A stretch of DNA of 64,000 nt, from positions 248,001 to 312,000 of the forward strand of contig QPGO01000090.1 in assembly GCA_008632985.1 (NCBI GenBank), in the 5' to 3' direction. Each line of letters starts with the position of its first letter. Positions within the stretch are counted from its first letter, which is position 1. Shown here piece after piece: positions 27,690 to 55,845 of this stretch. The notes beneath the pieces are model-generated. The model had not been told where the DNA came from. It saw only the letters and a list, made by a program, of their open reading frames with translations, and did no database searches. The position numbers and the translations under genes were made by a program. The stretch is from Psammoneis japonica (lineage: Eukaryota).

Positions 27690-30600
27690 GACGATGTGGT
27701 CTGGGTTGGTCATTTCCGGGTTGGGATGCGTTTGGCTCCCAGCTGGCCAATTGATTCCCTTTTTTCTACCATTTTTGGGTCATTCATTTCAAATGCTGGG
27801 GCGCCAGCCAGCCTTTCACGCAGCACCACATGTTGCTCACTGGGAGCCCTGTGCTGCACCTCAAGAAGAGACTCCACAAAGAATGTGCAAAAGGCTGAAT
27901 GTTGGAGTTTGACTCCAAAGCAAGAGGACTCAGACTCCATTGCTGTGCATTTCTGTAGCTCATGAGTCCCATTGAAGCCAAGTGCTGCCCATCCTGCGCC
28001 CAGGCTTCTCATTCTCTTGCTGACCAGCACGAGACACCTGGTGAGCTTCTTTTGGGCTCCATGGCATTTGATTGGCTGCAACATTGTCTGCACTTTGGCT
28101 GCTCATTTGCATCTCTTAGTCTTTTGTGACACCCACACTTTTGACTGGAGAGCTTTCATCAACTGCTCTCCAACTGCACATCAGTCTGCAAGCATGGCTG
28201 CTGCGCAACCTCTGAGCACTCTTTCCAAATGTCTGTGCAACACCTTGCAAGGACTGCCAACCCAGGTGGTGCACAGCTGCATTTGATGAGCTCAGTCAAC
28301 AACAGCACTTGTGTCTGTGTTTGGCATGTTGGTGTGTGTGTCTCAACAGTGCACGGTGCTCAGCCTGCGTCAACCCCAGCAGCAAATCATTTGTCTCTCT
28401 GTTTGTTGCACCAGAGACAAAATTTGATCGAGACACAACAAAAAATGGAGACAAGTGCAGAGAGACAGATGCAAAAAGACATTCCTGCAGACAGACAAAT
28501 GGAGGCAGTGACAAAGCCAACAGAGACATCAGAGACAAAAGCAGCAAGAGCAAAGAGAAGACAACTTTGTGGCCATTTCACCTCAATTGTTGCCACTCTG
28601 ACAACACAGTTGCTTGCATCACAAATCCTCATGCAGTGAAATGTGAGTGTCTGTTGCGCCGTTCATGGGGGGTGCAAAGTTTGGCCCACAAGCATCAAGT
28701 CTCATGGCCAGCTGTCACTTTTGCTGCAGCACAGTGCACGCTGCACACACATTTTTGGTTTTGTCTCCATCTGTCTTCATTGGAGACTGTTTTTTTTCAT
28801 TTGTCCATCTCCATCTGCCTCAATTTATTTCCCAACAGTTGGTTGGCCTTTGCTGACATGGTCAAGACAAAATGCCCAAGGTTCAAAAACAGAAGCAAGT
28901 TGCCAAATGAAAAGACTCCCTCACCCAACAATTTGGTGTGCACTCTGAGCAGAGACCCTTTTTTAACTCACCTGCATGGTGGCACATTTAAAGCAATCAT
29001 TTGTTCATTCTCAATGGCTGTTTTGCTGAAAAATTGTCACTCAAATGGGTGGGGTCGTGGACAAGTGTGAGCGTGGACAGCTTGTCAGAAAGTCTGTGAG
29101 AAAATTTGCCCTGTCTGTCCTGGCTGAAACTCTTTTTGCCATGCTCTCTCTCTTTCTCTTTCTCTTTAGTCTTTGCAAAGCTTTTTGCTTTTGACAGCTG
29201 AGAGCCAGCAGCTGACAGACAATGCAAAGCACCATGGTGCAACAAGGAAACTGCAAAGAGCAGAGATCACAATGAGGCCAAAAGCTGCAGTGGCAAATTG
29301 AAGGTCAAAAATGAGAAGGAAGAAACAAAACGAAGGTTGTCTCATTGCTGTTGCAGCTGCCAATGCTGCAGCAATGCCAACAGGAGACTGGTGCTGCATG
29401 CTTTCAGCACACTCAACCTGTTCATGCACCAGCAAAAAAGAGAAGCAGCCCCAGGATCACAGTGCTGGTGAAGAAAGTTGGCAACACCATGAAGCAGCAC
29501 CCAATGAAGCACAGCTGGTCATTGACCAACTTGGCTGACCAAATCTTTTAACAGAGACCAGTTGGTTTTTCCAACGCTGGCTGCAATGAGTTGCCAAAAC
29601 AAGCCAAAAGCACAAAGGGTGGGCTCCGCAGCTTCTCTGAAAAAAAGAGTGCTGAGATTAGAAAACAGAAAGGCTGAACGAAAAGAGCCGCACAGCTTTT
29701 CATTGGTGCTGGCAGAGTTGCAACACAAAATTGATTTGAGAGAAGATGTTGGGATCACTGTGTGAACAGGAGGAGCACTGGGACAAAAATCATCAGCTGC
29801 ACTTGTGCAGGGAAACTGAAAGCAGACACTGGCAACAAACAGCTCACAAAAGCTGAGAGAGAAAGCTTTTGGTGCTGGCTGCACAAATGGGGGCACAGAG
29901 ATTGGCTCATCAGCTTGCAAATTGCTTGTGTGCAGCCATGAGTGCGCTGGTTTTTGAACAGAAGATTCAGTGCAGCTGAACGAAAGAAGTGGAGAAAGTC
30001 AGCACATGAAGTTTTGGCAGCTGGCTGCCAAAATGATGGAAGTGACACTTGTCAACTTGGGCAAATCAATGTGTGCACACCATGGCACTGCATTCCAACA
30101 AGTGTCACTTTCTCCTTCTTTGGGTGTGCTGTGGCTCCCATCCATGATGTTTTTGTTGTCCTTTGGGTGGGCTGAGTGAGGATCTTTTGCATGGGTGCAG
30201 GCTTTGAGGCACCAGCTCATTTTTCAGCTTTGAATGTTGGGAGCCTTCTTTGCTCCTTTTTTGGAAAGGTTCAAAGCTGCGCTTGCCTCTTTTTCAAATG
30301 GGTGCACAAAACTGCACAGTCCAATTTTTGGGTGACAAAATTGCACCACTCACTTTTCAACCAAGTGTGCAAAATGGCACAGTCAGCTTTTCAAGTGGGT
30401 TCAAAAGTGCACCTTCTTCTTTTCAAGCAGGCTCAAGTTTGAAGTGCAGTTGGCTTCCAAAACTTGTCTCCTGCCAAACTGCACCTCATGTGCAGTGTGA
30501 GAGTTTTGCTCATCAATTGGTGTTGATGCACAAGCAACTTGTTGACAGTTGAAGTGCACTCAGACCGGCAATCATCCATGCATTAAAACACATTGGAGTC

Positions 30601-33330
30601 CTGAGCAGGCTGTCCTTCAAGTTTGCTTTAAAAACACCAATCATCAAGAACCAACCCACGCAAGCAAAGCATGTAAATCTTTGCACAGCCATCTTTGCTC
30701 CTTGCTGCGGAATCGAGAAAGAGCCACCCACCATTGCGATTCATTCTCTTGCCACATTCCTCTCAACCCACTCCCAACAAGAATGCTTGTTGTCCTTTTT
30801 GTCAGACAGTGATGCTGCATCACATTTTTTTCACAATTCTGGTTGCTGTTTGTCGCAGCACAAAGTCACAAAAGATTTCTTGTGCAACAGATGAGATTCA
30901 CTCGCATGGTGCCACGTCATTCCGCACAGCAGTTTTCACCACATCAGAACAAACAACAAACTGCTTCTTGCGTTCCTTGTCATTCAACAAATTCGAAGCG
31001 TGTGGGCGTGCAATTAATTGAGATTCACAGTGCTTGCCATGAGGATCTGCAAACCAAGCAGCTTGCCTCCACAAGTCACCTTTTTTGAAGAAAAACACTG
31101 GAGGCTCGGGTCTCCAGGGCCGGGCAAACTCATGAATCAAGGAAACAGCAAAAACACCCAATCCCAAATGGTTGCATGTCCTCGACTTTCCATGATCTCT
31201 GGGCACCTGGAGCTGTGCCATGAAAGCATCAGCCTCTTTGGCACTGTTGAACTGTGGCACCAATCCACGGTGGTGATCATCTTGTTCGGCAAGTTGACAT
31301 TCATCTGGAATCCAACGGCAAGCAACACGTTTGTCCAATGCCCAAATGTTGCCTTTTGGTTCATTGTCCAAATCAAGTTCAATGAAATGTGGCTGTTTCA
31401 CAACTTTGAAGCCGATTTGACCTGCGTCTTTTGAAGTCTCTTTGAACTCAAAATTTGGAAGCACCCACTTGTCGTCGTCATTGTCGTCACCATCTCGGTT
31501 GGCAAACGCAACATGTCCAAGCATTTTCTTGTTCTCTTTCCAAAGCTTTGGCATCCCATTGACCGTTTGTTGGATGACTTCATTGAAACCACTGATGTCC
31601 ACTGCATGGTGGCACACAACATCGTAAACTCCAATGAGGTTCTTTGGCAAGGTTGACTTGAAATGCCTGCCGGATCCATGCCACAGGCCTTCTGGACATT
31701 CGCACATGCACACCTCATCTTCCTTCAAGAGCCTTTCACAGTCATCCCTCATTTCTTGGAGCTCCTCCTCCTTTTTCTGTGTTTGGCATCGTCTTGCCTC
31801 CTTTGCAATGTTGCGACCTTCATCCATCTTGGGACAACACTCAAGACACTTTCCAACAGCCTGGTGTTGCTTGACATGCTCCACTGCTCCTTTCGGAATG
31901 CGCCCACATTCCGGATGGTTGGCACACTCCCATCCATTGAATGTTGTGTGTGGAGTGTCCCATTGAGTGACAGAAAAGTTGTCTTCTGTCTTTGTCTCAA
32001 GGCAGCTGCAGCACATTCTGGGCTCGGAAAGGAGAACAGCAAATTTTGCCTTCTTCTCAGCATGCTCTTTCTCTTGCTGCCTTTCTTTGGTGCAGCATTT
32101 CTCTTTTTCTTTTTCAAAGCACCAGTGGCACCGCGCTTCCTCTCCTTTCTTGGCTTTCCATTTTGACCTTGGTGAAATCACCGGCAGCAGTGTTGCAGTT
32201 GACGATGCACTGGAACATCCACTGCTTCATCTTCTGGACTTCAAAACATGGTTGACAAATTGCTTCCTCACCCTTTTTCGCTTTCCTTTTCTCACCCTTG
32301 GCAAAATCATCAGCTCTGGTCTTGCAGCAGCTGCATTCAAGCAACACGACCTGTTTGATGTGGTCGGGATGGGAGCCAACCTTTTGCTTCTTGTTGCGGT
32401 TGTTCGAAGCATGGCTTGGCCTCTTGTTGTCATTTCTTTCACTCATGGTGACTGCAGCTGTGTGATGGGGCCATGATGAGACTCTTGATGAAGATGCTCT
32501 GTGCTCTGCGATGGACGTCAACCCCACTGTGAAATTTTGTGGGTCCGTTGTGTTTTGAAAAATCCAACGAAAGCTAAAATCAGATCTGAGCAATTTCAAT
32601 GTTCCATTTTCCCACCCTTTTTCAAATTCCAAATTGCAGCTGTCCCTGAGAGACAGATCGCGTGATGCGTGATGCGCGGAATCAAATCTGCGACCTCATC
32701 GAATGATCTCCATGAGAAAAAGAAATGCACACGGGAGACAGTTTGTTGTTCTAGTTTTACCATGTCAGCTGCTGCATCACTGGCCCCGAGAGTTTGTCAT
32801 GCTCTGTTGCATCTGCAAGGCTTTGATGTTCACAAGACAGCCAAAGCTTTGTCTCATCCAACCCTTGACTGTGCCTGTTTGGACATGGAGGATGGCGCGG
32901 CACTGAACAAAAAGCAAGATGCCCAAGAAGGGATTCCACATGCCCTCAACAACATCAACTTTGGACAGACAGAACGATTGGTGAGAATCAATGGGTTTGA
33001 AACCAGTGATCTAGAAAAAAAGACTTGGAAGCTGTTGCACAGAACAAGCGAGTGTCCCGAAAAGCAAGACAAATGATCAAGTCACCGAAGAGTTGCTCGT
33101 CTCACCATGCGCTCTGAATCTGCTGACAGAGTTCTGCCAGACGGCATTGTGACACCAAAAGCAGAGTCTGCAGAAACAGCCCTTCCTGTGGCAGAGCACC
33201 TTGATGCCTTGGGTGATCGTGCAAACAATGTGCATGTCGTTTCCATGATTGAATCACCACAGGCCATGCTCAGCATGAAAGAAACATGCTCGGCGTGTCC
33301 GAGTCGAATGGATGCTGTCATTTTTGGAGG
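27690..33330. other. TpA- and CpG-depleted hypermutated domain 1
   Basis: No TA found by eye in ~28120-28825 or ~31627-32574; strong TG/CA excess. Confidence 0.9.
30898..32470 (-). pseudogene. Hypermutated gene with repeated CxxC zinc-binding units (Stc1-like)
   Basis: ECSCCKTRADDFAKGEKRKAKKGEEAICQPCFE, KAKKGEEARCHWCFE and CCSCLETKTEDNFSVTQW lie in two frames; Tyr nearly absent, Cys/His excess. Confidence 0.5.
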
Positions 33331-33720
33331 CGACGACTACGCGTCCGCTGTGGGTGCCACTAGAACAACGTCGAATGATGAGATGGAGTTTCCTCGAAAC
33401 TATTGCTTGATGCATGCGGCCGCATACGGATTGACTTTCGAGATGAAGAGCAGCTGGTTAGGGAATCATTAAGATCATTTCAGCAAGGCTTTTCTGGAAA
33501 GCAGGTTATACACCCAGCGCAGATTGCGCCGGTGCAAGAATCGTACTCACCAACAGAAGAATCAATCAAACATGCATCGGAAGTCGTCCGTGCCTTTGAA
33601 GAGCACCAAGAGGAAGGGAAGGGTGCGTTTAGCTTCAAAGGCCTGATGATTGACTTGCCAACGGTACTACAATACAAGCTGCTTCTAGAAAAAGCCCGTC
33701 TGATGGGACTTCACGAATAG
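32762..33720 (+). pseudogene. CitE/HpcH-HpaI (citrate lyase beta-like) gene with a degraded 5' half
   Basis: CLDMEDG, ERLVRING, DGIVTPK, MIESPQA, AVIFGGDDY, QGFSGKQVIHPAQI, GLMIDLP; frameshifts near 33.03-33.08 kb and ~33.43 kb. Confidence 0.8.
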
Positions 33721-33979
33721 CTCTCTCTAAAAGGTAGCCTTTACGGCACGAAGATACAGAATCTACTTATTCACTTTTCCAGTCTACCCTATGGAATTTT
33801 GAACCAGACGTTGCTCAACTTTGAAATGCGCAACATTTTGTTTCGACCATGCCTCCTCCTTCGCCGACCAGGATAAGATGGTCGGAAAGTGATCTCAGCC
33901 GCAAGACGATGATACTCCATGTTGCATGCCTGGAATGCCCCACCAAGCAACAGAAGCATAACGACCCATTCCAGACGCT

Positions 33980-35014
33980 TCATAGACCAGGAACAAAATG
34001 ATCGGGTCGCTTCCTTTTCCTACCAGCATGTCTGAAAGCAAATAGATCTGGCAAATCTTGAAGCAACGAGTAAAAAAGGCTCACAGTCGAGTCGTCCGTA
34101 CTGCTCGTCCCTACCCTGGCCAACACGTGCGCCCATAGACAAGGGTGTACGTTGTCTCGTGTCAACAGTTGCTTGCTCAGAAATTCCAAGATAATTGATG
34201 TCTCGTGGCGCCTTCCGTTTGAGATTGCACGATCCAATGGCGTGCGGCCACGCTCGTCGAGAGCATTTGCGTCGGCTCCGTGTTCGAGCAGCAACTTTAC
34301 CGTGCCTCCCCTGGCACAGTGTAACGGCGTGCATTCAGTTTCATCCGTTTCATTCACGCTCGCTCCATTCTGCAAAAGCGTGCGAGCCGTCTGAACTCTC
34401 CCACGTCTCGCAGAATGGTGAAGCGGTGTAAGATTTCCATATCTTGTCTTTGCATTTACGTCTGCCCCATTTCGTAAAAGAAACAAAATAATATCGCGCT
34501 GCCTTTCCACATCCGAATTGGTGACAATATGCAAAACAGTGTCGCCAAGGCTGTTTGTTTCGTCAACTCGGGCACCACCTGTCAGTAGAATTTGTGCGGT
34601 TGACACAAAGCCGTGCCTACACGCGAAGTGAAAGGGTGTTTCACGGTAGAGCTCACTATTTGCCAAACTTACTCCAGCGTCCAGTAACGCCTGAATCTTT
34701 TCGTCGCGGTCGCTTGTCGTCGAATAGAACATGACAAGAAAAATCGGTGAGGCATCATAATTGTCAGGAGACGTCGAATTGGGATTAGCGCCTAGTTGCA
34801 GGGCATGTCGCATATCTCCCGCAGTCCCTTGAATAATGGCCCTAACAAGGTTGCGAAAAAGAGTTGAAGGATGCAAAGGGTCCTCCATATTTGCCTTGAG
34901 GTGTACTACCGGTATGCTTACCGTATCATAGCTCACTGTCACCTGAGAATGTGCGTGCCGAGAGGCTTCCGACAGGTCGATAGGGGGATTTTGTCTCTTC
35001 CCCCACTGTTGCAT
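33980..35014 (-). CDS. Ankyrin-repeat protein (intact copy)
   Basis: TPFHFAC, GDTVLHI, TPLHHSA, TPLHCA, GRTPLDRA repeats; normal Tyr and TA content. Confidence 0.88.
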   Translation of the reverse strand: MQQWGKRQNPPIDLSEASRHAHSQVTVSYDTVSIPVVHLKANMEDPLHPSTLFRNLVRAIIQGTAGDMRHALQLGANPNSTSPDNYDASPIFLVMFYSTTSDRDEKIQALLDAGVSLANSELYRETPFHFACRHGFVSTAQILLTGGARVDETNSLGDTVLHIVTNSDVERQRDIILFLLRNGADVNAKTRYGNLTPLHHSARRGRVQTARTLLQNGASVNETDETECTPLHCARGGTVKLLLEHGADANALDERGRTPLDRAISNGRRHETSIILEFLSKQLLTRDNVHPCLWAHVLARVGTSSTDDSTVSLFYSLLQDLPDLFAFRHAGRKRKRPDHFVPGL

Positions 35015-35259
35015 GCTTTGTTTCCGTTATGATAGATGGAATTTAAGTGCCGAAAATCATATATGTGTTTTGCACCATCGGTTCGGGGGGGGGGTTAAAA
35101 ACTCTTTGCTGACTCACCGCCCGACACACCATCGGGTTTTGGAGTTTTTGATTCAGTACAGCAAGAGTTGCAGCGCCTTCCTTCCAAGAAGTAGGAGATA
35201 TAGGGCCCTACCTTGTAAAGATGGGGAACGGCCCGAGTTCCGAGTTTACACCCAAAGAC

Positions 35260-36585
35260 TCAAACATGCATCGGAAGTTGTTGATGCCTTTCAAGAGCAC
35301 CAAAAGGAAGGGAAGGGTGTGTTTGGCTTCAAAGGCCTGATGATTGACATGCCAACAGCACTGCAGTGCAAGCTGCTTCTAGAAAAAGCCCATCTGATGG
35401 GACTTTGCAAGAGCAGCTCTCTCCAAAAGGCAGCCTTTGTGGCACGAAGACACAGAATCCACTTGCTCACTTTTCCAGGCTGCCCTGTGAAATTTTGAAC
35501 CAAATGTTGCTCAACTTTGAAGAGTGCAACATTTTGTTTTGACCATGCCTCCTCCTTCGCTGACCAGGACAAGATGGTCGGAAAGTGATCCAAGCAGAAA
35601 GACAACAACATGAGGCTGGAATGCAAACACCAAGCAACAGAATCAGAATGACCCACGCTGAATGCTTCACACACCTGATTGGGTTGCTTCCTTTTCTGAC
35701 CAGTCGGCCTGAAATCAAGTGGACATGGCAAATCTTGAAGCAACAAGCAAAACAACGAGCTCGCAGTCAAGTCATCTGTGCTGCTGCTTGTCCCCACCCT
35801 GGCCAACACGTGCACCTGCAGACAAGGGTGCACGTTGTCTCGTGCCAACAGTTGTTTGCTCAGAAATTCTAAGACAATTGATGTCTTGTGGCACCTTCCT
35901 GATGAGATTGCAAGATCCAATGGCGTGCGCCCATCATTGCTGTCGAGAGCATTTGTGTTGGCTCTGTGTTCAAGGATCAACTTCACTGTGCTTCCCCGGG
36001 CACAGTCCATGCAACGGCATCAACCCAGTGTCATTGGTTTTATTCACACTCACTTCATTCTGCAAAAGCATGAGAGCCGTCTCAACTCTCCCACTTCTTG
36101 TGGCAAAGTGAGTCGGTGTGCAACCCCCATCCGTTGTCTTTGCATTTGTGCCTGCTCCATTCCTCACAAGAAACAAAATCATTGCCACTCTTTCCTCATC
36201 CAAAGATGTGACATCATGCAAAATAGTGTTGCCATTGCTGTTTCTTTTGTCAACTTGGGCACCACCTGAGAGTGGAATTTGTGCAATTGACACCTTGCCA
36301 AACCTGCGCGCAAAGCCAAAGGGTGTGCAGCCAAAACATTCTGTTGTCAAACTTGCTCCGGCATCCAGCAACACCTGAATCTTTTCCTGTGGTCGTTCAC
36401 ATGTGGATTGCATGTGACAAGAAAAATTGGAGTGGAGCAACCAGCAAGACATGGCGAATTTGGATCAGCACCTGGTTGCAGGACATGTTGCACATCTCCC
36501 ACAGTTCCATCCATGACAGCCCTCATTGGGCAACAAAAAAGAGTTGGACATGTGAAAGATCCTCCATGTTTTGCTTGAGGGGTGT
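35260..36585. pseudogene. Tandem duplicate of the CitE 3' end plus ankyrin gene (copy of ~33566-34905), hypermutated
   Basis: Colinear alignment starting TCAAACATGCATCGGAAG; differences dominated by TA->TG/CA and CG->TG/CA; frameshifted ankyrin ORFs. Confidence 0.9.
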
Positions 36586-36639
36586 GTGGAGCGCCAATGG
36601 ATGGTCATTGACCACTCAGTGGTCAGTGATTGCATGAAT

Positions 36640-37590
36640 TCCACATGAAACAGTCATGTTGGAAAAAACGCGTTGAACAACAAGTGCATTTGTGCGATGT
36701 GCTGTTTTGGTGGCAAATTGGAAAAAAAGAGTGTCTGTGCACCTCACTGCAGCCCCAAAAATGGCATGAGCCATCAAACACAATGGTCATCCGTGTCACT
36801 GGTGCAGTGGCCACGCCACATTGCCGCTGCAACCCCGGTGGTGTGGTGGTGCAGCAGGGCCCTGCGCACTGTGCACACCGCACAGGCAATGCAGCATGCA
36901 ACAGCACACACCCACACCCACAAAGAAAGACAAGTGGTCAATGCTCCTCATAGGCCTGGTTCATTGACCACTCAGTGGTTGGTGATTGCAGACTTTTTCA
37001 TGTTGGTTGGGCAGTCGGGGGGTTGGGCAGTTGGTTCGTCTGGATTTGAGAGTGTGTCCCTTGGATTTTGGAACAGCATGGGTTGTTCAGTGCAAATGAG
37101 TTGTTGCTTGGATTTGTGGAATGAACATTGAGGACATTGGAGGTTGTGGTGACATCCTAAAAAATTGACAAATTTCCTGTGACGGGTGCATGGAACGGTT
37201 TTTCAGGAGAGCTTGAAAGTGCTGCAAAATTGGGATTGCCGGCGTGGCATGTTGAAAAATGCACTGAGCTTTGAACAAATGGAGTTTGTCATGAATTGTG
37301 CGTGAAACAGTCACATTGAAAAACAATGTTGAACAACAAGTGCATTTGTGTGATGCGCTGTTTTGGCAACAAATTGGGAAAAAAAGAGTGTGTCCGTGCA
37401 CCTCACCACAGCCCCAAAAATGGCATGAGCCATCACATGTGACAGTCATCCACGTCACCAGTGTGGTCCCCCCGGCAGTGCAGCAGGGCTCTGTGCACTG
37501 TGCGCACCATGCAGGCAATGCAGCGCGCAATGGCACACACCCACACCCACAAAGAAAGACTGGTGGTCAATGCTCCCTGCAGGCCTGGTT
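36640..37590 (+). repeat. Two ~300-bp direct repeats (~36640-36960 and ~37300-37590)
   Basis: Shared GAAACAGTCA...GTTGAACAACAAGTGCATTTGTG...CAGCCCCAAAAATGGCATGAGCCATCA...CACCCACAAAGAAAGAC. Confidence 0.85.
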
Positions 37591-43773: not shown

Positions 43774-44240
43774 GGTGTCTTTTTCTTCTGCGTTGCATGT
43801 GGGAACAAGAAGAGACGAAACAAACAGAAGGCCCGAACGAGAATTTTGTGACCGAATTTTTTGAATTCGCGCGGTGTTCGGTTTCTGGCCACACGTCTGA
43901 TGTCACGAATGTCACAGAACGTGCGACAGCTTGTCAGTCTGATGTGGTGTGTGGTGCATGACTGACTAAAAATGACGTGTCAACCACGTTTGTCTGTGCA
44001 CTGTGCACCCATGCCGACAAACAAATGAAAATGGGTTATCAGCCATTGAATTGGGAAGCACCGTTTTGTTTCCAAAATCGATGCTTCTTTCATCTTCTGC
44101 ATTGTCAATTGACATGCTTTGTGCCTCTGGGGGTGTCAGATTCATGGTTCTGAAGAATGCCATCACTTTGTCACAAGAAGGGCGGCCTTTTTTCTCTCCA
44201 AGAGGAGGACAGACTGGCTGTCAGCAGAGCTGGGGGCTGT

Positions 44241-44516
44241 TGACAGAAATTGAAGGCAAATGGCAAGAATTCAAACAATGACTCCTTACTGCTGTCTAAA
44301 TGGCAGATGAGTCTCCGCTCAGAGACCGTTGCAGGAGCCGAAAGACGTGTGAGTCGGTGCAATCGGGCTACTGTCATTGTTCTTGTGAGCCTTGTGGCTC
44401 GAAAGCAAACTGCATCGCGCGTGAACGCGCGGAGCTAAAGCACACAAAACTGTGCGCGGTAAACTAAACAGCGCGCGACACTTCGCGCGCATCCAAATCC
44501 TGTTCAAATCCTGTCA
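44241..44516 (-). repeat. 3' LTR (TpA-converted copy)
   Basis: TGACAG...CTGTCA; 11 transition differences from the 5' LTR. Confidence 0.95.
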
Positions 44517-47500: not shown

Positions 47501-49906
47501 CGGAGGTGGAACGTCATCGCCATTGGGGTCAATCGCATGCAGATGACACTCGCAGAACACGTCGTCGTTCGGAATGAGGTGATCATCGAGGGCGGATGCG
47601 TGATCGGCAGACAAGGAAGCGGACAAGATGGTCTCGTTGACAACGACACGGTGACGGCAGTTGCCGCATTCGTCAAACAGGTTGGCAGTGGGATCGTCCT
47701 GCAGGTCAGAGATCGCGTCGCACCACTGGTCGTCGTCAGTGACAGAGTGATCGAGGACGGAAGGGTCCCATGTGTCATCACCGGTGAGGATGACATGGGG
47801 CAGGGTGTCCCATTCGGCGTCAGTGTAAGGTCGCATGGCAACACAAGGCAGGCCAGCCTTGATGTCAATGGGGATGACACAGCCATCAGGAGTGGCAATG
47901 CGTTGCAAGCCGTTGGGCACCTTGACAGAGCGATCGTTGACATCCTGTTTGTGCCATTCGAGCTGGCCGCAGGAATGGATGGTCTTGCCCTTTCCCGTGC
48001 ATGCGCACTGATGGAGGATGGCGATGACGGGACCACGCTGGGTCTCAATGACGGCACCAGCGGTGACAATGGGGATGTCCACCAATTGATGATCGTCAAT
48101 GCCCTGAACGTCGACTTGGCGAGAGGTGCGTGCAATGACGTGAACGTCGTCGCCAGCAATGCCGCCGTTGGCCCCACGATCGACTGGAGCGCCAGTGCGT
48201 GTGGAGCGATGAGCAGAGGCAGAGCAAATGACATTGTGGTTGTTGACGCGGCGGCAAGTGCGGCCGTTGAGTTCTGTGTCATCTGCAGGAGCTGGTGGGG
48301 CAGAGGAAGTGGCGGATGGCCCCGGTCGACTGGCATTGGGGGCTTGGTTAGGTGACAACAGACGTTGCAGATCACCGGGTGGCAGTGGCTTGCGCTTGGT
48401 GAGGTGCGCCAGGATGGGATTATCCGAAGTGGCGTCCACATGTGTGGCGGAGTCACCACAGTCAGCAGGAGTCGTGTTGGACAAGTTGACATCACCGTCA
48501 CTCCCAGGGTGTTGGTCGTGAAGGTTGGCCGTAACAGACTCATGGCAGTTGCTGGCTCGCGGGTTGCGGGGAGGCGGACGAGAGTGCTCAAGGATGATCG
48601 CCTTGGAGGAATCGGGCAACGAATCCCAGAGCCGTTGGTGGTCGGGAGGGAGACGTCTCCATTGGACACCGGTGAGGCTGGGACCGCGGGTGCAGGCAGC
48701 ATTGGCTTGAAGGACGTCAACGTCGCTGTCAATGTCGTAGAACACATCGTCGGACGGTTCCTCGGAGCAAACGTCGTGTGCGCATGTGGCGCGTCGGGGA
48801 GCTCAAGGTGTCGTCTTGGGTTGAAACGTGCTGTCGTGCTGAGCTGCCGCAGAGAGGAGCAAGCCACAGCATTGATCGCATGTGAGGCTCTTGCCACTCT
48901 GCGCACGATGCTGATCAGCTTGGTTCTTGACAGCACGGAGTTCCTCGACAGGGTGCATGGCATTCTCGAGCATGACGCGCTTCTGTCCTTCAGAGAAGTG
49001 GTCGCTGGCGGGGATGAGTGCCTCGCACTTGCGCAACTGATCTTGCCAATGAAGGATGAACCCGTGGGTCGGACCTTTCCAAGTGCCATCACCAAGACGT
49101 GCGGTGGTGAGGTGCGTGAGCAGGGTGGAGGACTCGATGGATGCACGGGTGGAGGCAAGCGCGCACTCAGACAAGGAGCGGCAGACGGTCTGTGCGTCAG
49201 AAGACCCCACATTTTCGCGAATGAGAGCCTTGCCCTTGTCGGTGAGAAGGATGCGTTCGAAGACGGCGAACATGTGCTTTTGCTGTTCAGCAAAGAGCAG
49301 TTTGTCTTCAGGGCTGGTCGGTTTGTACGACGAGTCTAGAACGCACTCGACGTCTTGGGCACGGGCTTGTGCCACAAGTGAGGTGTGCCAAGTGTGCCAC
49401 TGCTTGTCGGATTTGAGAGCCGTGAAAGCGGTGGGATCACGCTTGATGCCTCGCTTGAAGTCTCGCACCGGGTCGCGTGCCTTGGTCAGGTTGGTGACAT
49501 GTGGAGGTGCAAGGGGTGAGCTGCCGATGGACACAGAGGACATGCAGTCCGGGCTGAGGCGGCAGGCAAGGAACTCGTCATGCGTGAACAAAGAGGAGTC
49601 GTTGGCAACGTCAAGGCCTTTGTGTGCTTTGACAATGCACAGGCTAACTGGCGCTGCTAACATGTTCTCATAACCACGGGGCAAAGGGATTGCATTGGTG
49701 CCGTTGTCGCACTCAAGCGAGTCGATTTGGGACGGCATGAACGTGAACAGTTCCTGATGCGAGTCCGTGCCGTCTTGGGCCAAAGCCAAACGAAGAGGAC
49801 TCCCAGCACCTTGGGCAAGCACGGTTCCAACAACGTGCTCGAAACCATCGGTTTGTTGCTGACGAGTGAGAACCATGGCAGACAAAAGTGGTGTCAGCAC
49901 AATCAA
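44464..49906 (-). pseudogene. gag-pol polyprotein remnant (gag 48803-49906; PR/IN N-part 47045-48745; IN C-part, RT and RNase H 44464-~47200)
   Basis: FKRGIKRDP (gag), VDRGANGGIAG (protease), RHKARLVADGH, AVYVDDL, WFSKKQATVE, NPADILSKHWG; frameshifts and an integrase-core deletion. Confidence 0.93.
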
Positions 49907-50815
49907 TTCTGGTTGGGAAGCGAAGGCAGACTCAAAACTTGGGTGAGAATGGACTTGACTTGAAACAGACTTGACTTGAAATCTTGAACTATCTTAAAAT
50001 CAGAAGTCGCCGGGCTTTGTTGTCCCGTTCGTTGTCAAGTGCTAAACTTCCCATCCGGTCCGTAGAGTTGTGCCGGCACGTCCGAACCCGCAGCCAGCGG
50101 CGCTTTGGGTTGCTTGCGAGCGGAGCAGCGGGTTGTAAACCCCTGCAGGCAAGCTGACTAGAGGTGGACAAGACCCCCGAACTGTTCTTGTTTTATGTCG
50201 GTTGGATTTCCCGATCAGGCTGGCCAGTTGACGCAGGCGTTGGGCGCTGTGGACGAACGAACAAACGCGGGAAAGCACCCTCGCCCCAACGCAGGCTGTG
50301 ATCACGGCTGCTTGCTCTCACAGTCGTCCTCGTGGACCTAGTAGAACTGTAGAGCACCAGTAGTCCGGGGTAGATCAGGTACAATGGACTCGGTGTGCTT
50401 GTAGAGTGGTGGCAAAACCGCAGTCCGAAGGGTGGGTACAGGTTCTTGGCCGTGAAGATATGTATATATATATATGTCTTCAGCGACGAAGATCCTTGAA
50501 TATGTAGGGTTCTTGACCGTTAACCGATGAATAGGTATATCAAGGGATGAGGATCAAGGATAGACTTGGATATGACCGTTGAATGTATGTCTTCAGCGAT
50601 CAAAGGCAGTATAATGAATCCAGACATCCAGCGGCAAGGAGACTTGACGGTGACGTTAACTTCCTGCCGATGCCCTGGTATTGGATGCGCGTAGACTTGC
50701 CGATGTATGTAGAATATATACGGAGGTCCACGTAGAATTGAAATAGCGTCGTTGGTAAATCAACGACGACGATGGCGGTTGCTCAATGGGTTGACAATGA
50801 GCAAGACTGTTAATC

Positions 50816-51091
50816 TGATAGAAATTGAAGGCAAATGGCAAGAATTCAAACAATAACTCCTTACTGCTGTCTAAATAGCAGATGAGTCTCCGCTCAGAGA
50901 CCGTTACAGGAGCCGAAAGACGTGTGAGTCGGTATAATCGGGCTACTGTTATTATTCTTGTGAGCCTTGTGGCTCGAAAGCAAACTACATCGCGCGTGAA
51001 CGCGCGGAACTAAAGCACACAAAACTGTGCGCGGTAAACTAAACAGCGCGCGATACTTCGCGCGCATCCAAATCCTGTTCAAATCCTGTCA
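50816..51091 (-). repeat. 5' LTR (TpA-retaining copy)
   Basis: TGATAG...CTGTCA, followed by TSD GCTGT. Confidence 0.95.
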
Positions 51092-52949
51092 GCTGTGCAC
51101 AGCCATGTGCTGAGAAAATTTGCACAGTTTTTTGGGCACCCAAGTTGTGCAGCAAGTCAACTGCTCAGCCATTGTCTCTTGCAATGGCAGCATGATGAGA
51201 GTCCACAGTGCACCACACTCCTTGTGTCAAACAATGTGGGCCCCCATGAGCTCTCTCATTTGCCGTTGTCAACTCCACATGCCTTGTTGCTCACATTTTG
51301 CACACAGGTGTCATGAATTTGAAATGGACAACATAAAAAACATTCATCAATGAGGACATTCAACAACAAAAATTCAAACAGTGGATTTTTTTAGAAAGCG
51401 GCAATGTGCTGCTTTTGCCCCCCGCCGTGCTGTGACATGCAGCACTCATTTGCCCTGCCGTTTTCACCAAGATCTCCATTGACCTGCTTGCTGATGCTTG
51501 CAAATTGGGTTTGTGTGTCAAACAATGGAAAGCCACTGTCTCTTGGAGTCACTTTGCAAAGTTTGCCCCTGCAACAAGAGGACAGACTGGCTGGAAGAAG
51601 AGACATGGACCGATTTTCACTTGCAAATTGAAAGTGTTGTCACCACACCAGCACAATGTGCAAAACAGAACGTTGGGAATGGCACATGTCATGTGCAAAC
51701 ATGCAGTCAATGTCCACATGACAGGCATGTAAAATGACTGCACATGACTCTTTGTGCAGAATTTGTGCCAGCTGCTGGTGCATGCTTGGGGCTGGATGAA
51801 ATGAGATCCAACAACGGCACTCCATGTCAAGTGAGTTTGAATGTCAGAGCTGCCAAAATTGACCAAAACACCAGCCACGTCTTTTGACAAAACATGCAAA
51901 CATGGATGTGGTTCATGAAGCAGTCAGAGTTGAAAAGCAACACCAAATTTAAAATGTTGACTTGGCCAGGAAAATTTTTCAAATCTTTTGACATTGTGCT
52001 TGCAAGTGGCAAGCATCGACTTTTGACTTGGAGCTGTGCAGGTCATCAGTGAAGCAGGGCCTGCATCTGAAAGATGGCCCAGTCATTTGCCAAAAACCAC
52101 TGTCATCAGGTGCCATTGTGTGAAAATTGCAAAACTGGTGTTTGGGATGTTTTTGGCAGCTCACACTGTGCCAGCCGCACAGCTCCACAATTGTTTGACT
52201 TTTCTGCGCCCACGAAGAGCAAAATGCTCAACTGTGAAAAGTGCCAAAATGAACAATGAAGCTCTCTGTTAAAACAAAGTTGGGCTTTTTCAACCCCTGC
52301 AATTTTGACCAATTGCGCTGCTTTCTCTTGGACAAATTTTGCACTTGTGGCTCAGGCAGCTGCGAAGAGATCCATGCTGCGCAGAAATTTGCACAGCACA
52401 TCTGAAAGGGCAAGGGCAGTGGCATGCAAGAAAGTTGTGGACAGATGACAGCTTGCTGGGGGCACATGCAGAAACCATGCAAAAGTGACTTTTGGCAACA
52501 ATTTTGGGCATCTTGTTGGCCCTGGTGTTGTTCAAACTTGTTGGTTGCACACCAGTGTGTTGTCATTCTGCTGCATGCATCGCTTCAAGAGTGTTTGAGC
52601 TGAACATCTCCTGTGGGCCAAAATGAGGTGTGAGCTGAGTCATTTTTCTGAAGTTGGTGACAAAGAGGAACATTGACATTTTGCCACTCAACTGGAACAA
52701 CAGGTTTGCATCAAGAAGAAAAGTGGCGCCAAATGCAAAAATGGTTGCGGAACTTGCAATTGTGGTGCATGAGTTAAAAAGAGAAAATGCCAGAACAAGA
52801 CATTTTGTCTGGCATTGGTGTGGAAAAAATCAAAGAGCACATCCTTGGCATCTTCCTTTCACACAAGTCTTTGCCCTGCTTCATCTCAACAGAGGCTCCA
52901 GCCAGCAGAGCAAGATTTTTGACAATGTGGGCAAGAAATGTTGTTTGCC

Positions 52950-53790
52950 GGCCCCTGGCCAGAAATGTTTCTCACCACTCACCGGAGGTGTCCTTTGCCG
53001 CTGCTGGCCAGAAACATTTCTTGCTGCCAGCAGCCAAAAAGGTTTCCCACCACTCCCAAGACATGTTTTTAACCACTGGCTGGAAACTTTTTTGCGGCTG
53101 GCCAGCAGCATTTCTCACCACTTGCCAGAAATTTTTTCACTGCCAGCCAGGAAAGTTTCTTGCCGCTTGCTGGTGGACATTTCTTTGCCACTCTGAAAAT
53201 GTTGCCAAACTTGCCAAAAGTTGCCAAAGCCACCAAAGCTGATGACTGATGAAGTCACCAAAGTTGACACAGGTGACAAAGTTGACACAGGTGAGAAAGT
53301 TGGCAAAGCTGACAAACACTCCAAGCTTGCCAAAGCTGAAAAAGTTGCCAATTTTGCCAAAGTTGACAAAGTTGCCACAAATCTGACAAAGTCGCCAAAA
53401 TTTCCAAACTTGACAAAGTCAACAAACTTGCCAAAGTTGACAAGGATGACAAGAAAGCTGACAAACTTGCTGAAAGTTGCCAAAGCTGCCAAAGTTGACA
53501 AAATCACTGAAGCTGACAAACTCACCACTCTCGCCAAAGCTGACAAGCCAAAAGTGTTGTTTGCCATTGCCTGAAACATTTCTTGCCACCCACCAGAAAT
53601 GTTTTTTGCCACTGACCAGAAGCAAGCATTTGATGCCATTTCTTGCTAGAAACATTTCTCGATGCTTGCCAGAAATGCTTTTTGCATCACCGGCCAGAAA
53701 TGTTTCTTGCCGCCACTCGCCAGAAATGTTTTTCAATGTTTCTTGCCACTGGCCAGAAATGCTTTTTGCCAGTGGCCAGAAATCCTTGTT
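52950..53790 (+). repeat. Composite minisatellite: ~23-bp units flanking a ~9-bp unit array
   Basis: CCAGAAATGTTTCTTGCC-like units at ~52960-53190 and ~53570-53790; GCCAAAGTT/GACAAAGTT units at ~53200-53550. Confidence 0.8.
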
Positions 53791-55169
53791 GCCACCTCGT
53801 GCTTCAAAGTTTGCACCCAGCGCTGACATCACACGGGCAAAATTGCACCATCTGCTGCAGCGCAGTGCAACAAGAAGCTTGAGTGGCAGAGAGCTCACTT
53901 TGTGCCAGCCGCTGGACAAATGTTTGCAGCATTGGGCCAACAACTCTTGCCAAAGCCACTGCAGAAAAACCAGTTTTTGCCTCCTGCACCAAGCAGCAAG
54001 CTGATGGGTTCCAGTCCTGGGTGGGACTCCGTGTGACATTGGGCCCGCAGAATTCTGCGTGCGAGCTCCGCAGTGCAAGAGCTCAATTGATGGATGTGTT
54101 TGTCTTCAACATCAAATGAACGGCCAAGTTTGTGGTGCAATCGTGCCTGTTGCCACTCAACGTTTTTGCAAATGCGCGTGCCCTGCGCAATTCTTGAGGC
54201 ATTGTAGAATTGCGCTGCAACAAAAAATGTCAAAAGTTGTTGGACGGATCGCTCAACAAGTGCACCGTAAAATGACACAAAATGTCAAAAAAATCATGTG
54301 GAAATCTGCGTGCGTGACATGCGACATGATTGAAAAAACTGTCGATGTCACAGCTCAGTGGTGCAAGGTCCCACCCAGACCTGACTGGAACGCATCAGCT
54401 GCAAGCATGACAACCCACTGCCTGACCAAGTCAAGCCCACCCTGGTGCAGATCATGTGTCAAGCCATGGCTGCAGCCTTTTGCAATGATGACAGCAGCCA
54501 AACTGTTGCCAGCATGGTTGCCCTCACGCTCTTCTGTCTGCTTCTCCATCTTTTTGAAAACATGTTGGGGTGCTCCTTCAAACATGTGCCCAGCCTGCCT
54601 TGATGACGTCGAACTCTGGGTTTAGCCAACATTGTTGCAATGCATTTGCCACCTCATCTGGTGACTTGGCTCATGTCTTGTTTGCTGCTCTGGCCTTCAG
54701 CACCCAAAAAAGGGGCACAAGGGGGTCAATTTTGTCAGGTTGGCATGCAGCAGTGACCCAACAACACCATGCCCGCCCCCCCTGGCAATGGCCTGCTGTG
54801 CACACCACCTCCAAGCACATGGCACAACTTGCGCCACACATCCAGGGCCATCTTCTGCAAATGTGGTTGCTGCCATTTGGTCAAGCCACCTGATGTTGCC
54901 TGATGTTGCAGCTGCCTTGTTGGCCTCCACAGCCATGGCCAACCCACCAGCTGGCTTTTCACCTTGTGGTGATGTTGGCGCTCAACACTTGTGAGCTTCA
55001 GGAATGATGGCCCTCCTGTGTGCACAAGTGGGCAGTGTAACATCATCCACCCATCTGCACAACTTCTCATGCCACATGGTGAGTGGAGGGGCCTTCACCC
55101 TGCTCCCCACCAGCCAGAATCTCCCTCCCAACAATGCTGGCGACACACTTCCAGCCACCTCCAGTCAGT

Positions 55170-55650
55170 GGCATGCCTGCCTGTCCTGCACACACAGGCA
55201 AAACAGGTGGGTGGCACGCGCCACTGTGAATCTTTGATTGCCACCAATGCTGCCCCCTGGTGTGATGATGCAATCTGGTTGAAGCAGTGTGAGCAGCTGT
55301 GAGCTGGGCAGCAGAATTGGGAGAGAAACCAGATCTTGCAGACTGAAGAGACCTGGAGCCAAGTCAGGATCACCTTCAGTGTAACCAGCAAAGATTGCAC
55401 TGCCATCATTGGCAAACACATGCACCATGAAATTGCTGATTGCTTGATTGACAATGCATCACTTTGTTGCAATGAGACTAAGATGACTTGACTGTGAGGA
55501 CCAGGCAAGCCAGTGCAGTTTGTAAGTGCCCACCCACAGCCGCCTGGTGTGCCTGCCTGTCCTGCGCACAAAGGCAGCACAGGTGGCTGGGTGGTGCATG
55601 CCACTGTAAATCTTCAATTGCCACCAATGCCAGCTGGTGCAATGATGCCC
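55170..55650 (+). repeat. Two ~100-bp direct repeats (~55170-55270 and ~55550-55650)
   Basis: GCCTGCCTGTCCTGC...GCCACTGT...TTGCCACCAATGC in both. Confidence 0.75.
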
Positions 55651-55845
55651 TCTTCTTCCATCTGTGCCCCCCCTGTTTTCCTTCTTACTTCCACTGGTGG
55701 CTTGGATTCTTGTCCCAAAGGACAGGTGGAGCAAGACTTGATGACGAGTTTTGAGATCTGAGAGCTGGAAGCAGCTTCTAGCTAGCACCTGCATGGTGTT
55801 CAAGGAAAATCAGGAGAACTTTGAAATTTAGACAACATGTTCAAC

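Follow-up and report, generated by a model that had tools for sequence, protein, structure and literature searches.

In the RIP of ascomycete fungi, C is changed to T at CpA in both copies of a duplicate, creating TpA and AT-rich DNA, and the deaminases ADAR, ADAT/TadA and APOBEC3 act on RNA or single-stranded cDNA and leave one-strand footprints, with APOBEC3 inactivating retroelements through hypermutation. TpA is the target in the chlorarachniophyte Bigelowiella natans, where 230 of the 231 mutations gained by mutation-accumulation lines were A>G or T>C; each of these fell at TpA in one of two silent viral inserts. In a 2026 preprint, Mettrop et al. (bioRxiv 10.64898/2026.01.13.699255) put forward an enzyme resembling ADAT2, an adenine deaminase, as the cause, and their Discussion gives U/T as the base before the edited A for ADAR.

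Here we describe a locus within a 64-kb chromosomal stretch (the window) of a raphid pennate diatom with the same hypermutation of TpA to TpG or CpA. The process, for which a first-pass annotation knew of no described pathway, has in fact been measured in B. natans (bioRxiv 10.64898/2026.01.13.699255). As in the available account of that species, the changes are A>G or T>C at TpA only, fall on either strand and are confined to certain nuclear regions, and the TpA-poor, CpA- and TpG-rich clusters that are its long-term trace, in which reverse-transcriptase and transposase domains are over-represented, resemble those in the window. Unlike the rhizarian B. natans, the host here is a stramenopile and the targets comprise an LTR retrotransposon together with old repeats and dead copies of host genes, with no viral genes found among the hypermutated targets of the window. 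Depletion is near saturation (O/E 0.05, versus a Rho of 0.45 in the B. natans NCLDV insert), CpG decay is present in three blocks, a feature not discussed in the available text of the preprint, and timing comes from an LTR pair rather than from direct measurement in lines. Our literature searches returned no report of TpA-only hypermutation in diatoms.

Like RIP, the process at this locus is a transition hypermutation, regional and context-specific, by which repeated or selfish DNA is ruined where it lies, but it differs in that A>G at TpA erases TpA, with GC level in the old blocks or raised in a young copia element. A further difference is the sparing of one duplicate (an intact ankyrin gene) and of one LTR from an abundant family; since both are repeats and both are untouched, the name "reverse RIP" given at first pass misleads as to targeting. 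With ADAR, ADAT/TadA and APOBEC3 it has in common a 5'-neighbour preference and, putatively, deamination, but unlike theirs its changes affect both strands of integrated DNA, in random order, and include non-retro sequences.

Four blocks of the window have lost nearly all TpA

Blocks were called by a two-state HMM on TA positions, and their borders almost equal the coordinates proposed at first pass:

27685..33337, block 1, old hypermutated tract: 18 TA in 5653 bases, TA O/E 0.05, CpG O/E 0.32
35248..41027, block 2, old hypermutated tract: 18 TA in 5780 bases, TA O/E 0.05, CpG O/E 0.23
43763-49989, block 3 (copia block): 44 TA in 6227 bases, TA O/E 0.15, CpG O/E 0.90
51055-55778, block 4 (51097..55778 as a feature), old hypermutated tract: 17 TA in 4724 bases, TA O/E 0.05, CpG O/E 0.25

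TpA O/E is 0.05-0.15 in the blocks versus 0.60 in the flanks, and the ordinary TA content noted around the blocks holds across five flanking and intervening segments (0.59-0.91). Borders are sharp, tracts are a few kb long, and TG and CA are raised 1.3-2.0 fold within them. The two TA-free stretches reported at ~28120-28825 and ~31627-32574 were recovered as runs of 709 bp (28117-28826) and 950 bp (31625-32575); outside 27000-56500, TA-free gaps average 24 bp and reach 176 bp at most, and with 0.0415 TA per position, as in the flanks, the probability of a 950-bp run is 3e-18. AA is not depleted (O/E 1.29 in blocks, 1.14 outside), and GC is 56% in the copia block versus about 47-50% in the flanks.

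CpG O/E is 0.32, 0.23 and 0.25 in blocks 1, 2 and 4 against a reference of 1.0, with TpA-loss and CpG-loss borders coinciding, whereas the copia block is not CpG-depleted (0.90). This CpG depletion was absent from the first-pass annotation. It resembles the CpG decay of 5mC-methylated transposable elements, a process by which TpA removal is impossible; the earlier statement that 5mC deamination "creates TpA" was inexact, as at CpG it yields TpG or CpA, the decay present in three of the four blocks.

A young copia element dates the process

Block 3 lies largely within a Ty1/copia retrotransposon on the minus strand, with Pol at 44572-48247 in two frames (Pfam RVT_2; tblastn mapping):

43763..44235, left remnant of the old tract that received the copia insertion, TA-poor from 43763
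44236..44240 (left copy) and 51092-51096 (right copy), target-site duplication GCTGT
44241..44516, minus strand, 3' LTR, hypermutated, 6 TA
44517..49989, minus strand, copia internal region, hypermutated: TA O/E 0.15, CpG O/E 0.90, GC 57.5%
49990..50815, minus strand, copia 5' internal region, unmutated (826 bp): TA O/E 0.92
50816..51091, minus strand, 5' LTR, unmutated: 16 TA, O/E 0.84

Given the target-site duplication, 43763..44235 and 51097-55778 were contiguous before insertion. The LTRs differ at 11 of 276 positions, 10 of them TA sites of the 5' LTR that read TG (6) or CA (4) in the 3' LTR, a polarity that rests on contiguity with the internal region and not on an outgroup. The 3' LTR is changed at 10 of the 16 TA sites that its 5' counterpart retains, and CpG is identical at 21/21, which places the process after insertion and makes it far faster than CpG decay. 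The 5' LTR is untouched although it comes from a highly repeated family, and tract borders fall inside single units, one in this copia copy at about 49990 and one in a gene copy at 33337.

Pol carries the corresponding protein damage. At 20 alignment columns with Tyr in >=80% of 120 homologues, the element has 7 Tyr, 9 Cys, 2 His, 1 Trp and 1 Phe, while the other conserved residues are all kept (F 17/17, W 12/12, H 16/16, K 18/18, R 28/28, G 39/39, P 24/24). Against the profile consensus, the 41 Tyr positions divide into 10 kept, 18 Cys, 6 His and 7 other; retention at non-Tyr positions is 0.70, equal to that of unmutated relatives.

Gene copies reveal direction, strand and context

30901..32226, minus strand, dead protein-coding gene copy, 442-codon stop-free frame (phmmer)
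32666..33073, plus strand, HpcH/HpaI-type aldolase (C-C lyase) gene copy, hypermutated 5' half (Pfam HpcH_HpaI, E 1.1e-8)
33382-33717, aldolase copy, unmutated 3' part (C-C_Bond_Lyase, E 1.3e-8)
33566..34904, minus strand, intact ankyrin-repeat gene, unmutated reference copy (ORF 33980-35014; Pfam Ank_2, E 5e-49; TA O/E 0.62 in segment 33338-35247)
35260..36583, minus strand, hypermutated tandem ankyrin pseudo-copy (78.7% identity over 1308 aligned bases; residual Ank hits)

The first-pass observation that paired copies show TA replaced by TG or CA is borne out by the ankyrin pair, where 39 of the 49 TA of the intact gene are so changed in the block copy (22 CA, 17 TG; 1 TA is kept and 9 are other), and the same direction is seen in three pairs inside the window. 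A>G changes number 41/97 after T versus 13/205 after A, 17/185 after C and 14/174 after G, and are thus 5-7 times commoner after T than after any other base; as A>G after A, C and G is at background, a general GC bias does not account for the effect. Sites that became TG and sites that became CA are intermixed (19 runs versus 20.2 expected over 39 sites, and 5 versus 5.8 over 10 sites): both strands are affected, without strand runs. In the same pair, 53 of 79 CG have become TG or CA in the block copy, and the old blocks show, in addition, the kinds of indels and transversions that long decay leaves.

A second aldolase copy, from runs X1 and X2, shows at least 33 differences from the window over 32782-33236; of the 33 listed, 13 are TA there, 12 are CG there and 8 are other. 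The frame at 30901..32226 has no Pfam domain that we could find and 30 phmmer hits at E<=0.001, the best being P0241 (E 1.7e-94, 45% identity); by-eye reading of the 14 Tyr of aligned P0241 gives 1 kept, 4 Cys, 2 His, 3 Phe and 4 other in the dead copy.

Read support and metagenomic relatives

A 17-kb contig of run X1 (word depth 63.9) agrees with 27000-32880 (5.9 kb of block 1) except for 1 gap and 4 letters, each of the latter a substitution at a CpG/CpA site. Run X1 may be the sample behind the window assembly, and hence not fully independent.

Among 50 metagenomic relatives of the copia element scored for Tyr retention, three carry the TpA signature: L031, L035 and L002 keep 1/24, 2/22 and 16/35 Tyr, with TA O/E of 0.27, 0.13 and 0.31, respectively. 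In each of the remaining 47, neither Cys nor His exceeds 3. L031 and L035 are 94.5% identical, and 65 of their 99 differing columns are such steps (20 sites CA versus TG, 25 sites TA versus TG or CA, by site); the two mutated independently at the same ancestral TA sites. Eight further relatives (L008, L025, L034, L037, L047-L050) have a CpG O/E of 0.13-0.30 with ordinary TpA. As the young copia has lost TpA and no CpG, and these eight have lost CpG with ordinary TpA, the two processes are separable.

Proposed mechanism and alternatives

The first-pass interpretation is supported: every test run agreed with a region-limited, TpA-specific A:T>G:C process on both strands of integrated chromosomal DNA, and the best explanation is probably region-targeted adenine deamination on chromosomal DNA by a putative enzyme. 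The locus is a nest of junk DNA in the diatom chromosome, made up of a young Ty1/copia element, dead gene copies and old repeats, in which adenine in 5'-TA would be enzymatically deaminated to hypoxanthine and read as G at the next replication, turning TpA into TpG or CpA, that is, A>G on either strand. The change is made in place, on integrated chromosomal DNA, and takes away 70-95% of TpA before any CpG or background changes build up; the agent would be a putative nucleic-acid deaminase, presumably directed to particular chromatin domains. A Pfam-type domain search found no deaminase domain within the window. The locus has seen at least two rounds of action, one that left the older tract around the copia insertion and a later one that mutated the element itself. 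The CpG>TpG/CpA change in the three old blocks is a second, slower process, ordinary 5mC-type decay of the same silent DNA. As TpA is lost, codons for Tyr turn into codons for Cys or His, the stops TAA and TAG vanish and GC rises in the young element, so that its proteins are ruined while its DNA stays. The process may cripple selfish DNA; the "defence system" and the targeting by silencing put forward at first pass are inferences.

Because TpA is its own complement, adenine and thymine chemistry are indistinguishable by sequence alone, and T>C is inseparable from A>G at this palindrome. Oxidised thymine can mispair with G, and dinoflagellates and diatoms both belong to the SAR group. In silenced DNA, a TET/JBP-type dioxygenase might oxidise TpA thymine, with 5hmU or 5-formyl-U serving as a silencing mark; occasional pairing of the modified base with G would then give T>C on either strand as a by-product, with the same TpA>CpA/TpG outcome. 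We consider this unlikely, if credible: a dinoflagellate TET/JBP homologue makes 5hmU, a thymine-directed mark enriched on and repressing transposable elements in a related protist lineage, which could in principle give T>C, but the available text of that paper reports it as an epigenetic mark, with no TpA-specific mutational footprint like that of the window (PMC11572971). A loss of 70-95% of TpA before one CpG change would also demand a very mutagenic mark. The coincident borders of TpA and CpG loss in the three old blocks could instead reflect T:G mismatches from 5mC deamination that recruit long-patch repair by a polymerase-eta-like enzyme, with A>G errors at WA, the hotspot motif of polymerase eta, a pattern familiar from phase two of antibody hypermutation; with A>G after A at background, AA undepleted in the blocks, and the young copia TpA-poor while its LTR CpG are intact, this is very unlikely.

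Pre-integration editing of the retrotransposon's RNA or cDNA by an ADAR-, ADAT- or APOBEC-like activity, followed by reverse transcription, would loosely match the sparing of the 5' LTR and first 826 bp with the rest edited, like gradients in edited retroviral cDNA. Yet both strands are mutated in random order, DNA that was never retrotransposed is equally affected (the tandem ankyrin copy, half the aldolase copy, the dead gene at 30901..32226), and the 3' LTR, which is double-stranded early in reverse transcription, is heavily edited, leaving this reading a slender chance. The chance that true TA on modified DNA was miscalled as TG or CA is slimmer still: the pattern is regional, as expected of an epigenetic mark, and no sequencing platform is recorded for the assembly or run X1, but a strand-dependent miscall predicts two forms per site, whereas a single contig at unique-flank word depth carries block 1 with 4 differences. 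The signature also recurs in three contigs of other metagenome assemblies, two of them mutated independently at the same ancestral TA sites, and the old blocks bear the indels and transversions of long decay. Least probable is that no special mutagenesis occurred and TA-poorness stems from GC-biased gene conversion, codon usage or selection against TA. In its favour, GC is high in the copia block and ranges from 0.39 to 0.54 among relatives; however, this reading is already contradicted by the Tyr test, in which conserved Tyr became Cys or His with all other conserved residues kept, by the A>G context counts, and by a single insertion with one LTR changed and the other not. Tyr is also retained in 47 of 50 relatives.

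Local sequence preferences and repeat content

For the TpA process in the window, mutated adenines are commoner before a pyrimidine (34/57) than before a purine (14/53; p = 5e-4), and TTAA, CTAA and CTAG are over-represented among the TA sites that survive, so 5'-TAY may be preferred in the host genome; the metagenomic pair L031/L035 did not show this 3'-pyrimidine preference (27/52 versus 29/60).

The retrotransposon, duplications and dead genes attributed to the blocks at first pass are present; "satellites" was an overstatement for short tandem arrays at 53259-53795 in block 4, the largest a 9-bp unit x26 (53259-53502, 65% matches). Self-BLAST further found, in block 2:

36633..37590, internal repeat pair (36633-36961 and 37290-37590, 75% identity), member of a dispersed repeat

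Its summed word depth is 3700-5600, versus about 64 in adjoining sequence.

Regional loss of TpA

Four tracts of the Psammoneis japonica window have lost nearly all of their TpA dinucleotides, and on this point the first-pass annotation, which had proposed a regional loss from the sequence alone, was correct in substance. In 1-kb windows, the observed/expected ratio (O/E) of TpA was 0.01–0.09 over 28–33, 36–41 and 52–55 kb and 0.08–0.29 over 44–50 kb, as against 0.40–0.90 elsewhere in the window, and a two-state HMM run on TA positions delimited four blocks whose borders are sharp, to ~100–300 bp.

Limits and composition of the TpA-poor blocks (two-state HMM on TA positions)
Block 1, 27685–33337: 18 TA in 5653 bases; TA O/E 0.05; CpG O/E 0.32; GC 0.472
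Block 2, 35248–41027: 18 TA in 5780 bases; TA O/E 0.05; CpG O/E 0.23; GC 0.486
Block 3, 43763–49989: 44 TA in 6227 bases; TA O/E 0.15; CpG O/E 0.90; GC 0.564
Block 4, 51055–55778: 17 TA in 4724 bases; TA O/E 0.05; CpG O/E 0.25; GC 0.486

The five segments outside the blocks had TA O/E of 0.59–0.91, CpG O/E of 1.00–1.12 and GC of 0.468–0.502. The longest TA-free runs measured 950 bp (31625–32575), 925 bp and 709 bp (28117–28826), the first and last being the two stretches in which the first-pass annotation had found no TA; outside 27–56.5 kb such runs reached at most 176 bp, and the chance of a 950-bp run at the flank TA frequency is 3e-18. Pooled over all blocks, CA and TG O/E were 1.70 and 1.66 (1.16 and 1.17 outside), and AA was not depleted, with an O/E of 1.29 in the blocks versus 1.14 outside. 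CpG, on which the first-pass annotation was silent, is scarce in blocks 1, 2 and 4 (the "old" blocks) and not in block 3, and TA and CG densities shift jointly at the old-block borders. By their CpG O/E, the old blocks appear to have undergone decay of the 5mC type, whereas the block that holds the copia element does not; this CpG decay accompanies the loss of TpA and does not account for it.

Contents of the blocks

The blocks contain repeats, a copia element and dead copies of genes; the genes that separate the blocks are normal, and no viral genes were found. The principal features are as follows.

35260–36583, start of block 2: tandem ankyrin pseudo-copy, duplicate of the intact gene at 33566–34904
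Block 1: dead gene copy of 442 codons, best homologue the protein P0241 (E 1.7e-94)
5' half in block 1, 3' half at 33382–33717 outside the block: HpcH/C-C-lyase gene copy, its 5' half mutated and its 3' half unmutated
44241–44516 and 50816–51091: 276-bp LTRs of a complete Ty1/copia element, minus strand
44236–44240 and 51092–51096: 5-bp target-site duplication, GCTGT

A Pfam search of 78 stop-free frames (90 codons or longer) from blocks 1, 2 and 4 and of two copia frames returned only a single HpcH_HpaI fragment, a weak match to DUF7298 (E 0.0056) and ankyrin remnants, leaving most of blocks 1, 2 and 4 unmatched; the 442-codon copy in block 1 likewise has no Pfam domain. The ankyrin gene at 33566–34904 is intact and unmutated although it adjoins its mutated duplicate, which shows that host-gene duplicates are among the targets. 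The first-pass annotation had also placed satellites in the blocks; a few tandem arrays do exist, all of them short and poor.

Summed word depth in sequencing run X1 was 3700–5600 over 36338–37671 and ~590 over 39673–40339 in block 2, as against ~64 nearby, which points to a dispersed repeat family, without a Pfam match, inside the old tract. A frame resembling RuvX, of the Holliday junction resolvase family (43057–43761, minus strand), ends a few bases from the left border of block 3.

Direction, context and strand of the changes

The ankyrin gene and its copy in block 2 (1308 aligned bases, 78.7% identity) allow the changes to be counted site by site. At the 49 TA of the gene the copy has 22 CA, 17 TG, 1 TA and 9 other dinucleotides, and at the 79 CG it has 30 TG, 23 CA and 16 CG. 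Sorted by the 5' base, A>G changes number 41/97 after T, 13/205 after A, 17/185 after C and 14/174 after G, while C>T changes amount to 54/158 before G and to a fraction of 0.08–0.10 before other bases. An excess above background is thus confined to TA>TG/CA and CG>TG/CA, which indicates two context-specific processes over a symmetric background. The replacement of TA by TG or CA in paired copies that the first-pass annotation had described is therefore borne out, in 39/49 sites of the ankyrin pair and in 10/16 of the LTR pair. The aldolase region has a second copy, carried by contigs from runs X1 and X2, that differs from the window (32782–33236) at 33 positions or more; among the differences listed, at least 13 are TA and at least 12 are CG in the second copy where the window has TG or CA, and at least 8 are of other kinds.

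The order of TG and CA outcomes along the sequence is that of chance (19 runs versus 20.2 expected over 39 sites, and 5 versus 5.8 in the 10-site set), and the runs test on these 39 and 10 sites revealed no strand-coordinated runs. Such an order implies that sites are hit singly, on either strand, and speaks against editing of cDNA or processive editing of a single strand. Within the window pairs, adenines were mutated more often before a pyrimidine (34/57) than before a purine (14/53; Fisher p = 5e-4; 55 sites, with the 9 sites of other outcomes left out). Among the 97 TA that survive in the blocks, ATAT occurs 0 times (125 outside) and ATAC/GTAT once (241 outside), with TTAA, CTAA/TTAG and CTAG over-represented 3.8-, 2.4- and 2.05-fold. 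This 5'-TAY tendency is only tentative, since two TA-poor metagenomic relatives of the copia element, L031 and L035, lack the 3'-pyrimidine preference (27/52 vs 29/60).

The copia element in block 3

Membership of Ty1/copia is indicated by direct LTRs of the form TG...CA, the 5-bp duplication and an RVT_2 domain (Pfam E 9e-26). Pol is split between 48247–47204 in one frame and 47286–44572 in another, with at least one frame break, and within a 1609-codon open frame only the last ~760 codons are genuine Pol, the remainder being a stop-free wrong frame. The element is nested in an older tract poor in both TA and CpG (43763–44235 plus 51097–55778); the locus has been hit at least twice, the old tract first, and then the copia element, which inserted and was mutated in turn. 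Its 5' LTR (TA O/E 0.84) and the next 826 bp (0.92) are untouched, though they adjoin old block 4. A (TA)8 microsatellite stands intact at 50459–50474, in the unmutated 5' leader and a few hundred bases from the TA-poor border. Word depth over the element was 80,000–165,000 (7027 contigs), which marks an abundant family and is not a copy number; for comparison with other copies, the read contigs span the element up to position 47000, short of its 5' part (47000–51091).

Both LTRs of one insertion start out identical, so their differences date from after insertion. The two LTRs differ at 11/276 positions, ten of which fall at TA: the 5' LTR has 16 TA sites, and at 10 of these the 3' LTR is changed, with TG at six and CA at four; the eleventh is an A/G difference in an AAC context. 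At all 11 positions the mutated LTR has G/C where the other has A/T, and all 21 CpG of the LTRs are identical (21/21). The polarity of these changes is inferred from the contiguity of the 3' LTR with the internal region, whose own polarity the protein comparison below establishes. Given that polarity, about two-thirds of the TA sites would have changed before any CpG or background substitution accumulated, and the mutation would have acted after insertion and fast relative to CpG decay.

At the protein level, TAY>TGY yields Cys and TAY>CAY yields His. We aligned the copia Pol with 120 homologues of 55–69% identity. Of the 20 columns with Tyr in at least 80% of the homologues, copia retains Tyr in 7 and shows Cys in 9, His in 2, Trp in 1 and Phe in 1. 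Columns conserved for other residues are preserved (F 17/17, W 12/12, H 16/16, K 18/18, R 28/28, G 39/39, P 24/24, A 23/23 and L 37/38), and Tyr makes up 1.5% of the copia Pol, versus a mean of 4.3% and a minimum of 2.3% among the homologues. Apart from damage specific to TA, the element is, to judge from these residues, a well-conserved and recently functional copy. A TA-poor codon habit of the copia family was also considered, and is excluded by the loss of Tyr with other conserved residues kept.

Read contigs and metagenomic relatives

A 17-kb X1 contig (word depth 63.9) spans 27000–32880 with four other letters and one gap relative to the window, support that is only partly independent because X1 may be the source sample of the window and its platform is not recorded. 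The four substitutions (28092, 30709, 30982 and 30995) are all CpG versus CpA, two each way, and could reflect polymorphic or heterozygous CpG sites in a tract that is presumably methylated, or else CpG errors left in the consensus. Run X2 covered 11/30 bins, each of which lies over genes between the blocks rather than inside a block, and lack of cover is not a sign of silence.

Metagenomic loci with relatives of the copia Pol give independent support. Among 51 such loci, 50 of which could be scored for Tyr, three have a low TA O/E (L035 0.13, L031 0.27 and L002 0.31) and the other 48 range over 0.52–1.02. The same three have lost conserved Tyr: L031 keeps 1/24 (8 Cys, 10 His), L035 2/22 (9 Cys, 6 His) and L002 16/35 (11 Cys, 7 His), while the remaining 47 scored loci have at most 3 Cys and at most 3 His each. 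L031 and L035 are 94.5% identical, and at 20 sites one has CA where the other has TG, the mark of separate hits on the two strands of a shared ancestral TA; at 25 further sites TA stands against TG or CA. Together these steps account for 65/99 differing columns and CpG steps for 8 more. Eight other loci (L008, L025, L034, L037 and L047–L050) combine a CpG O/E of 0.13–0.30 with ordinary TpA (0.52–0.85), and CpG decay and TpA loss are thus separable; the hosts of these eight elements seem to methylate them without TpA hypermutation.

Targeting, mechanism and alternatives

Tract borders do not track repeat units: one lies within the copia element, and that of block 1 falls in the middle of the HpcH/C-C-lyase gene copy. 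Together with the intact ankyrin gene and the untouched 5' LTR, this shows that the process does not recognise repeats as RIP does; a regional factor, presumably chromatin state, would set the borders. The data establish the sequence context and direction of the changes, their timing, their symmetry between strands and their regional limits. Most likely, adenine at 5'-TA would be deaminated to hypoxanthine by an enzyme acting in selected domains of chromosomal DNA, and the hypoxanthine fixed as G upon replication. Such an editor, either an adenine deaminase or some equivalent enzyme that reads TpA, would wipe TpA from chosen kilobase tracts faster than any CpG change and, by turning Tyr into Cys or His, would kill transposons and surplus gene copies, and may thus serve in defence. 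No deaminase or dioxygenase domain was detected by Pfam in the window, among 45 flank frames and 15 large ORFs.

The data argue against several other explanations. Mutagenesis of the polymerase-eta type, with its WA motif, is expected to produce A>G at both TA and AA, but A>G after A is at background in the ankyrin pair and AA is not depleted in the blocks. Editing of retroelement RNA or cDNA, of the ADAR or APOBEC type, predicts a one-strand footprint limited to retroelements, whereas the two strands are interleaved here and non-retroelement gene copies are affected. GC-biased conversion, or a compositional habit of the family, is contradicted by the Tyr columns and by the LTR pair. An artefact of base calling on modified DNA would, as a strand-dependent miscall, leave two competing forms per site, but the X1 contig gives one form, and the signature recurs in the metagenomic L031, L035 and L002.

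A thymine-directed alternative would give the same footprint. Oxidised thymine (5hmU or 5fU) can mispair with G, and a dioxygenase that placed such a mark would leave an identical trace since TpA is palindromic. Dinoflagellates have a 5hmU mark that silences transposable elements (PMC11572971). We consider it an even call that diatoms possess a dedicated, chromatin-directed TpA editor of integrated double-stranded DNA, a chemical mirror of RIP that is possibly old and widespread in SAR.

Comparison with known systems and significance

Diatoms are major marine primary producers, and to our knowledge the restraint of their transposons is poorly known beyond cytosine methylation. Full-text literature searching turned up no diatom case of TpA-specific hypermutation. 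TpA-specific A:T>G:C hypermutation has been reported once before, in a 2026 preprint on the chlorarachniophyte Bigelowiella natans (Mettrop et al., bioRxiv 10.64898/2026.01.13.699255) whose text, as distinct from supplementary tables that might list further taxa or motifs, makes no mention of diatoms, stramenopiles or Phaeodactylum. According to that text, of 231 mutations that B. natans mutation-accumulation lines gained in two integrated viral regions, 230 were A>G or T>C changes, every one of them at TpA, at a rate of ~6e-7 per site per generation; the genome holds 124 TpA-poor clusters rich in CpA and TpG, TpA-poor coding sequences are enriched in reverse-transcriptase and DDE domains, and the authors propose an ADAT2-like deaminase (bioRxiv 10.64898/2026.01.13.699255).

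As far as that text describes the B. natans case, the diatom changes resemble it in being nearly all A>G or T>C (11/11 LTR differences from A/T to G/C), in their restriction to TpA (A>G after T in 41/97; 10/11 LTR differences at TA), in giving both TpG and CpA (22 CA and 17 TG in the ankyrin pair; 6 TG and 4 CA in the LTR) and in their confinement to foreign or selfish DNA with normal flanks, here without viral genes. They go beyond it in near-saturated depletion, the post-insertion timing given by the LTR pair, speed relative to CpG decay and environmental replicates. Diatoms are a second lineage with a process of this kind. Fungal RIP has a comparable effect and differs in chemistry, product and target recognition: it makes C>T at CpA, creates TpA and leaves AT-rich DNA, whereas here TA O/E is 0.05–0.15, with CA and TG enriched and a GC of 0.47–0.56, and it mutates all duplicate copies, whereas the ankyrin gene and the copia 5' LTR are spared.

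The footprint has been measured in a rhizarian and is also observed in environmental copia copies, so the system may be of ancient origin and spread widely across SAR, which raises the testable question of whether it is an ancient, shared defence of these lineages. The hunt for the enzyme is directed to diatoms, a group with some genetically tractable members; if real, the enzyme would be a naturally occurring adenine editor (A:T>G:C) that acts on chromosomal DNA. For annotation, TA-free tracts drop TAA and TAG stops and so yield long false ORFs, such as the 1609-codon copia frame, changes of Tyr to Cys or His blur the homology of transposable elements and genes, and old element copies slip under repeat-detection thresholds.

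Host genes in the flanks

The flanks encode an ABC1 kinase 69% identical to that of Epithemia clementina and a DUF2254 protein 53% identical to that of Phaeodactylum tricornutum, with other matches up to 67%; these two genes place the window in a diatom. The DUF2254 membrane-protein gene (9780–11198, minus strand) is intronless and its non-diatom relatives are mostly bacterial (35–49% identity), and it apparently goes back to an early transfer from bacteria that Phaeodactylum shares. Fragments of a Na_Ca_ex exchanger lie on the plus strand at 16586–17179, 21096–21683 and 22827–23573, and between them a 1016-codon AAA_16 ATPase frame (17677–20727, minus strand) may be an intron-nested gene or an insertion splitting the exchanger gene. 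An XendoU-type endoribonuclease gene (13246–14165, minus strand) is divided between two frames, probably by an intron.
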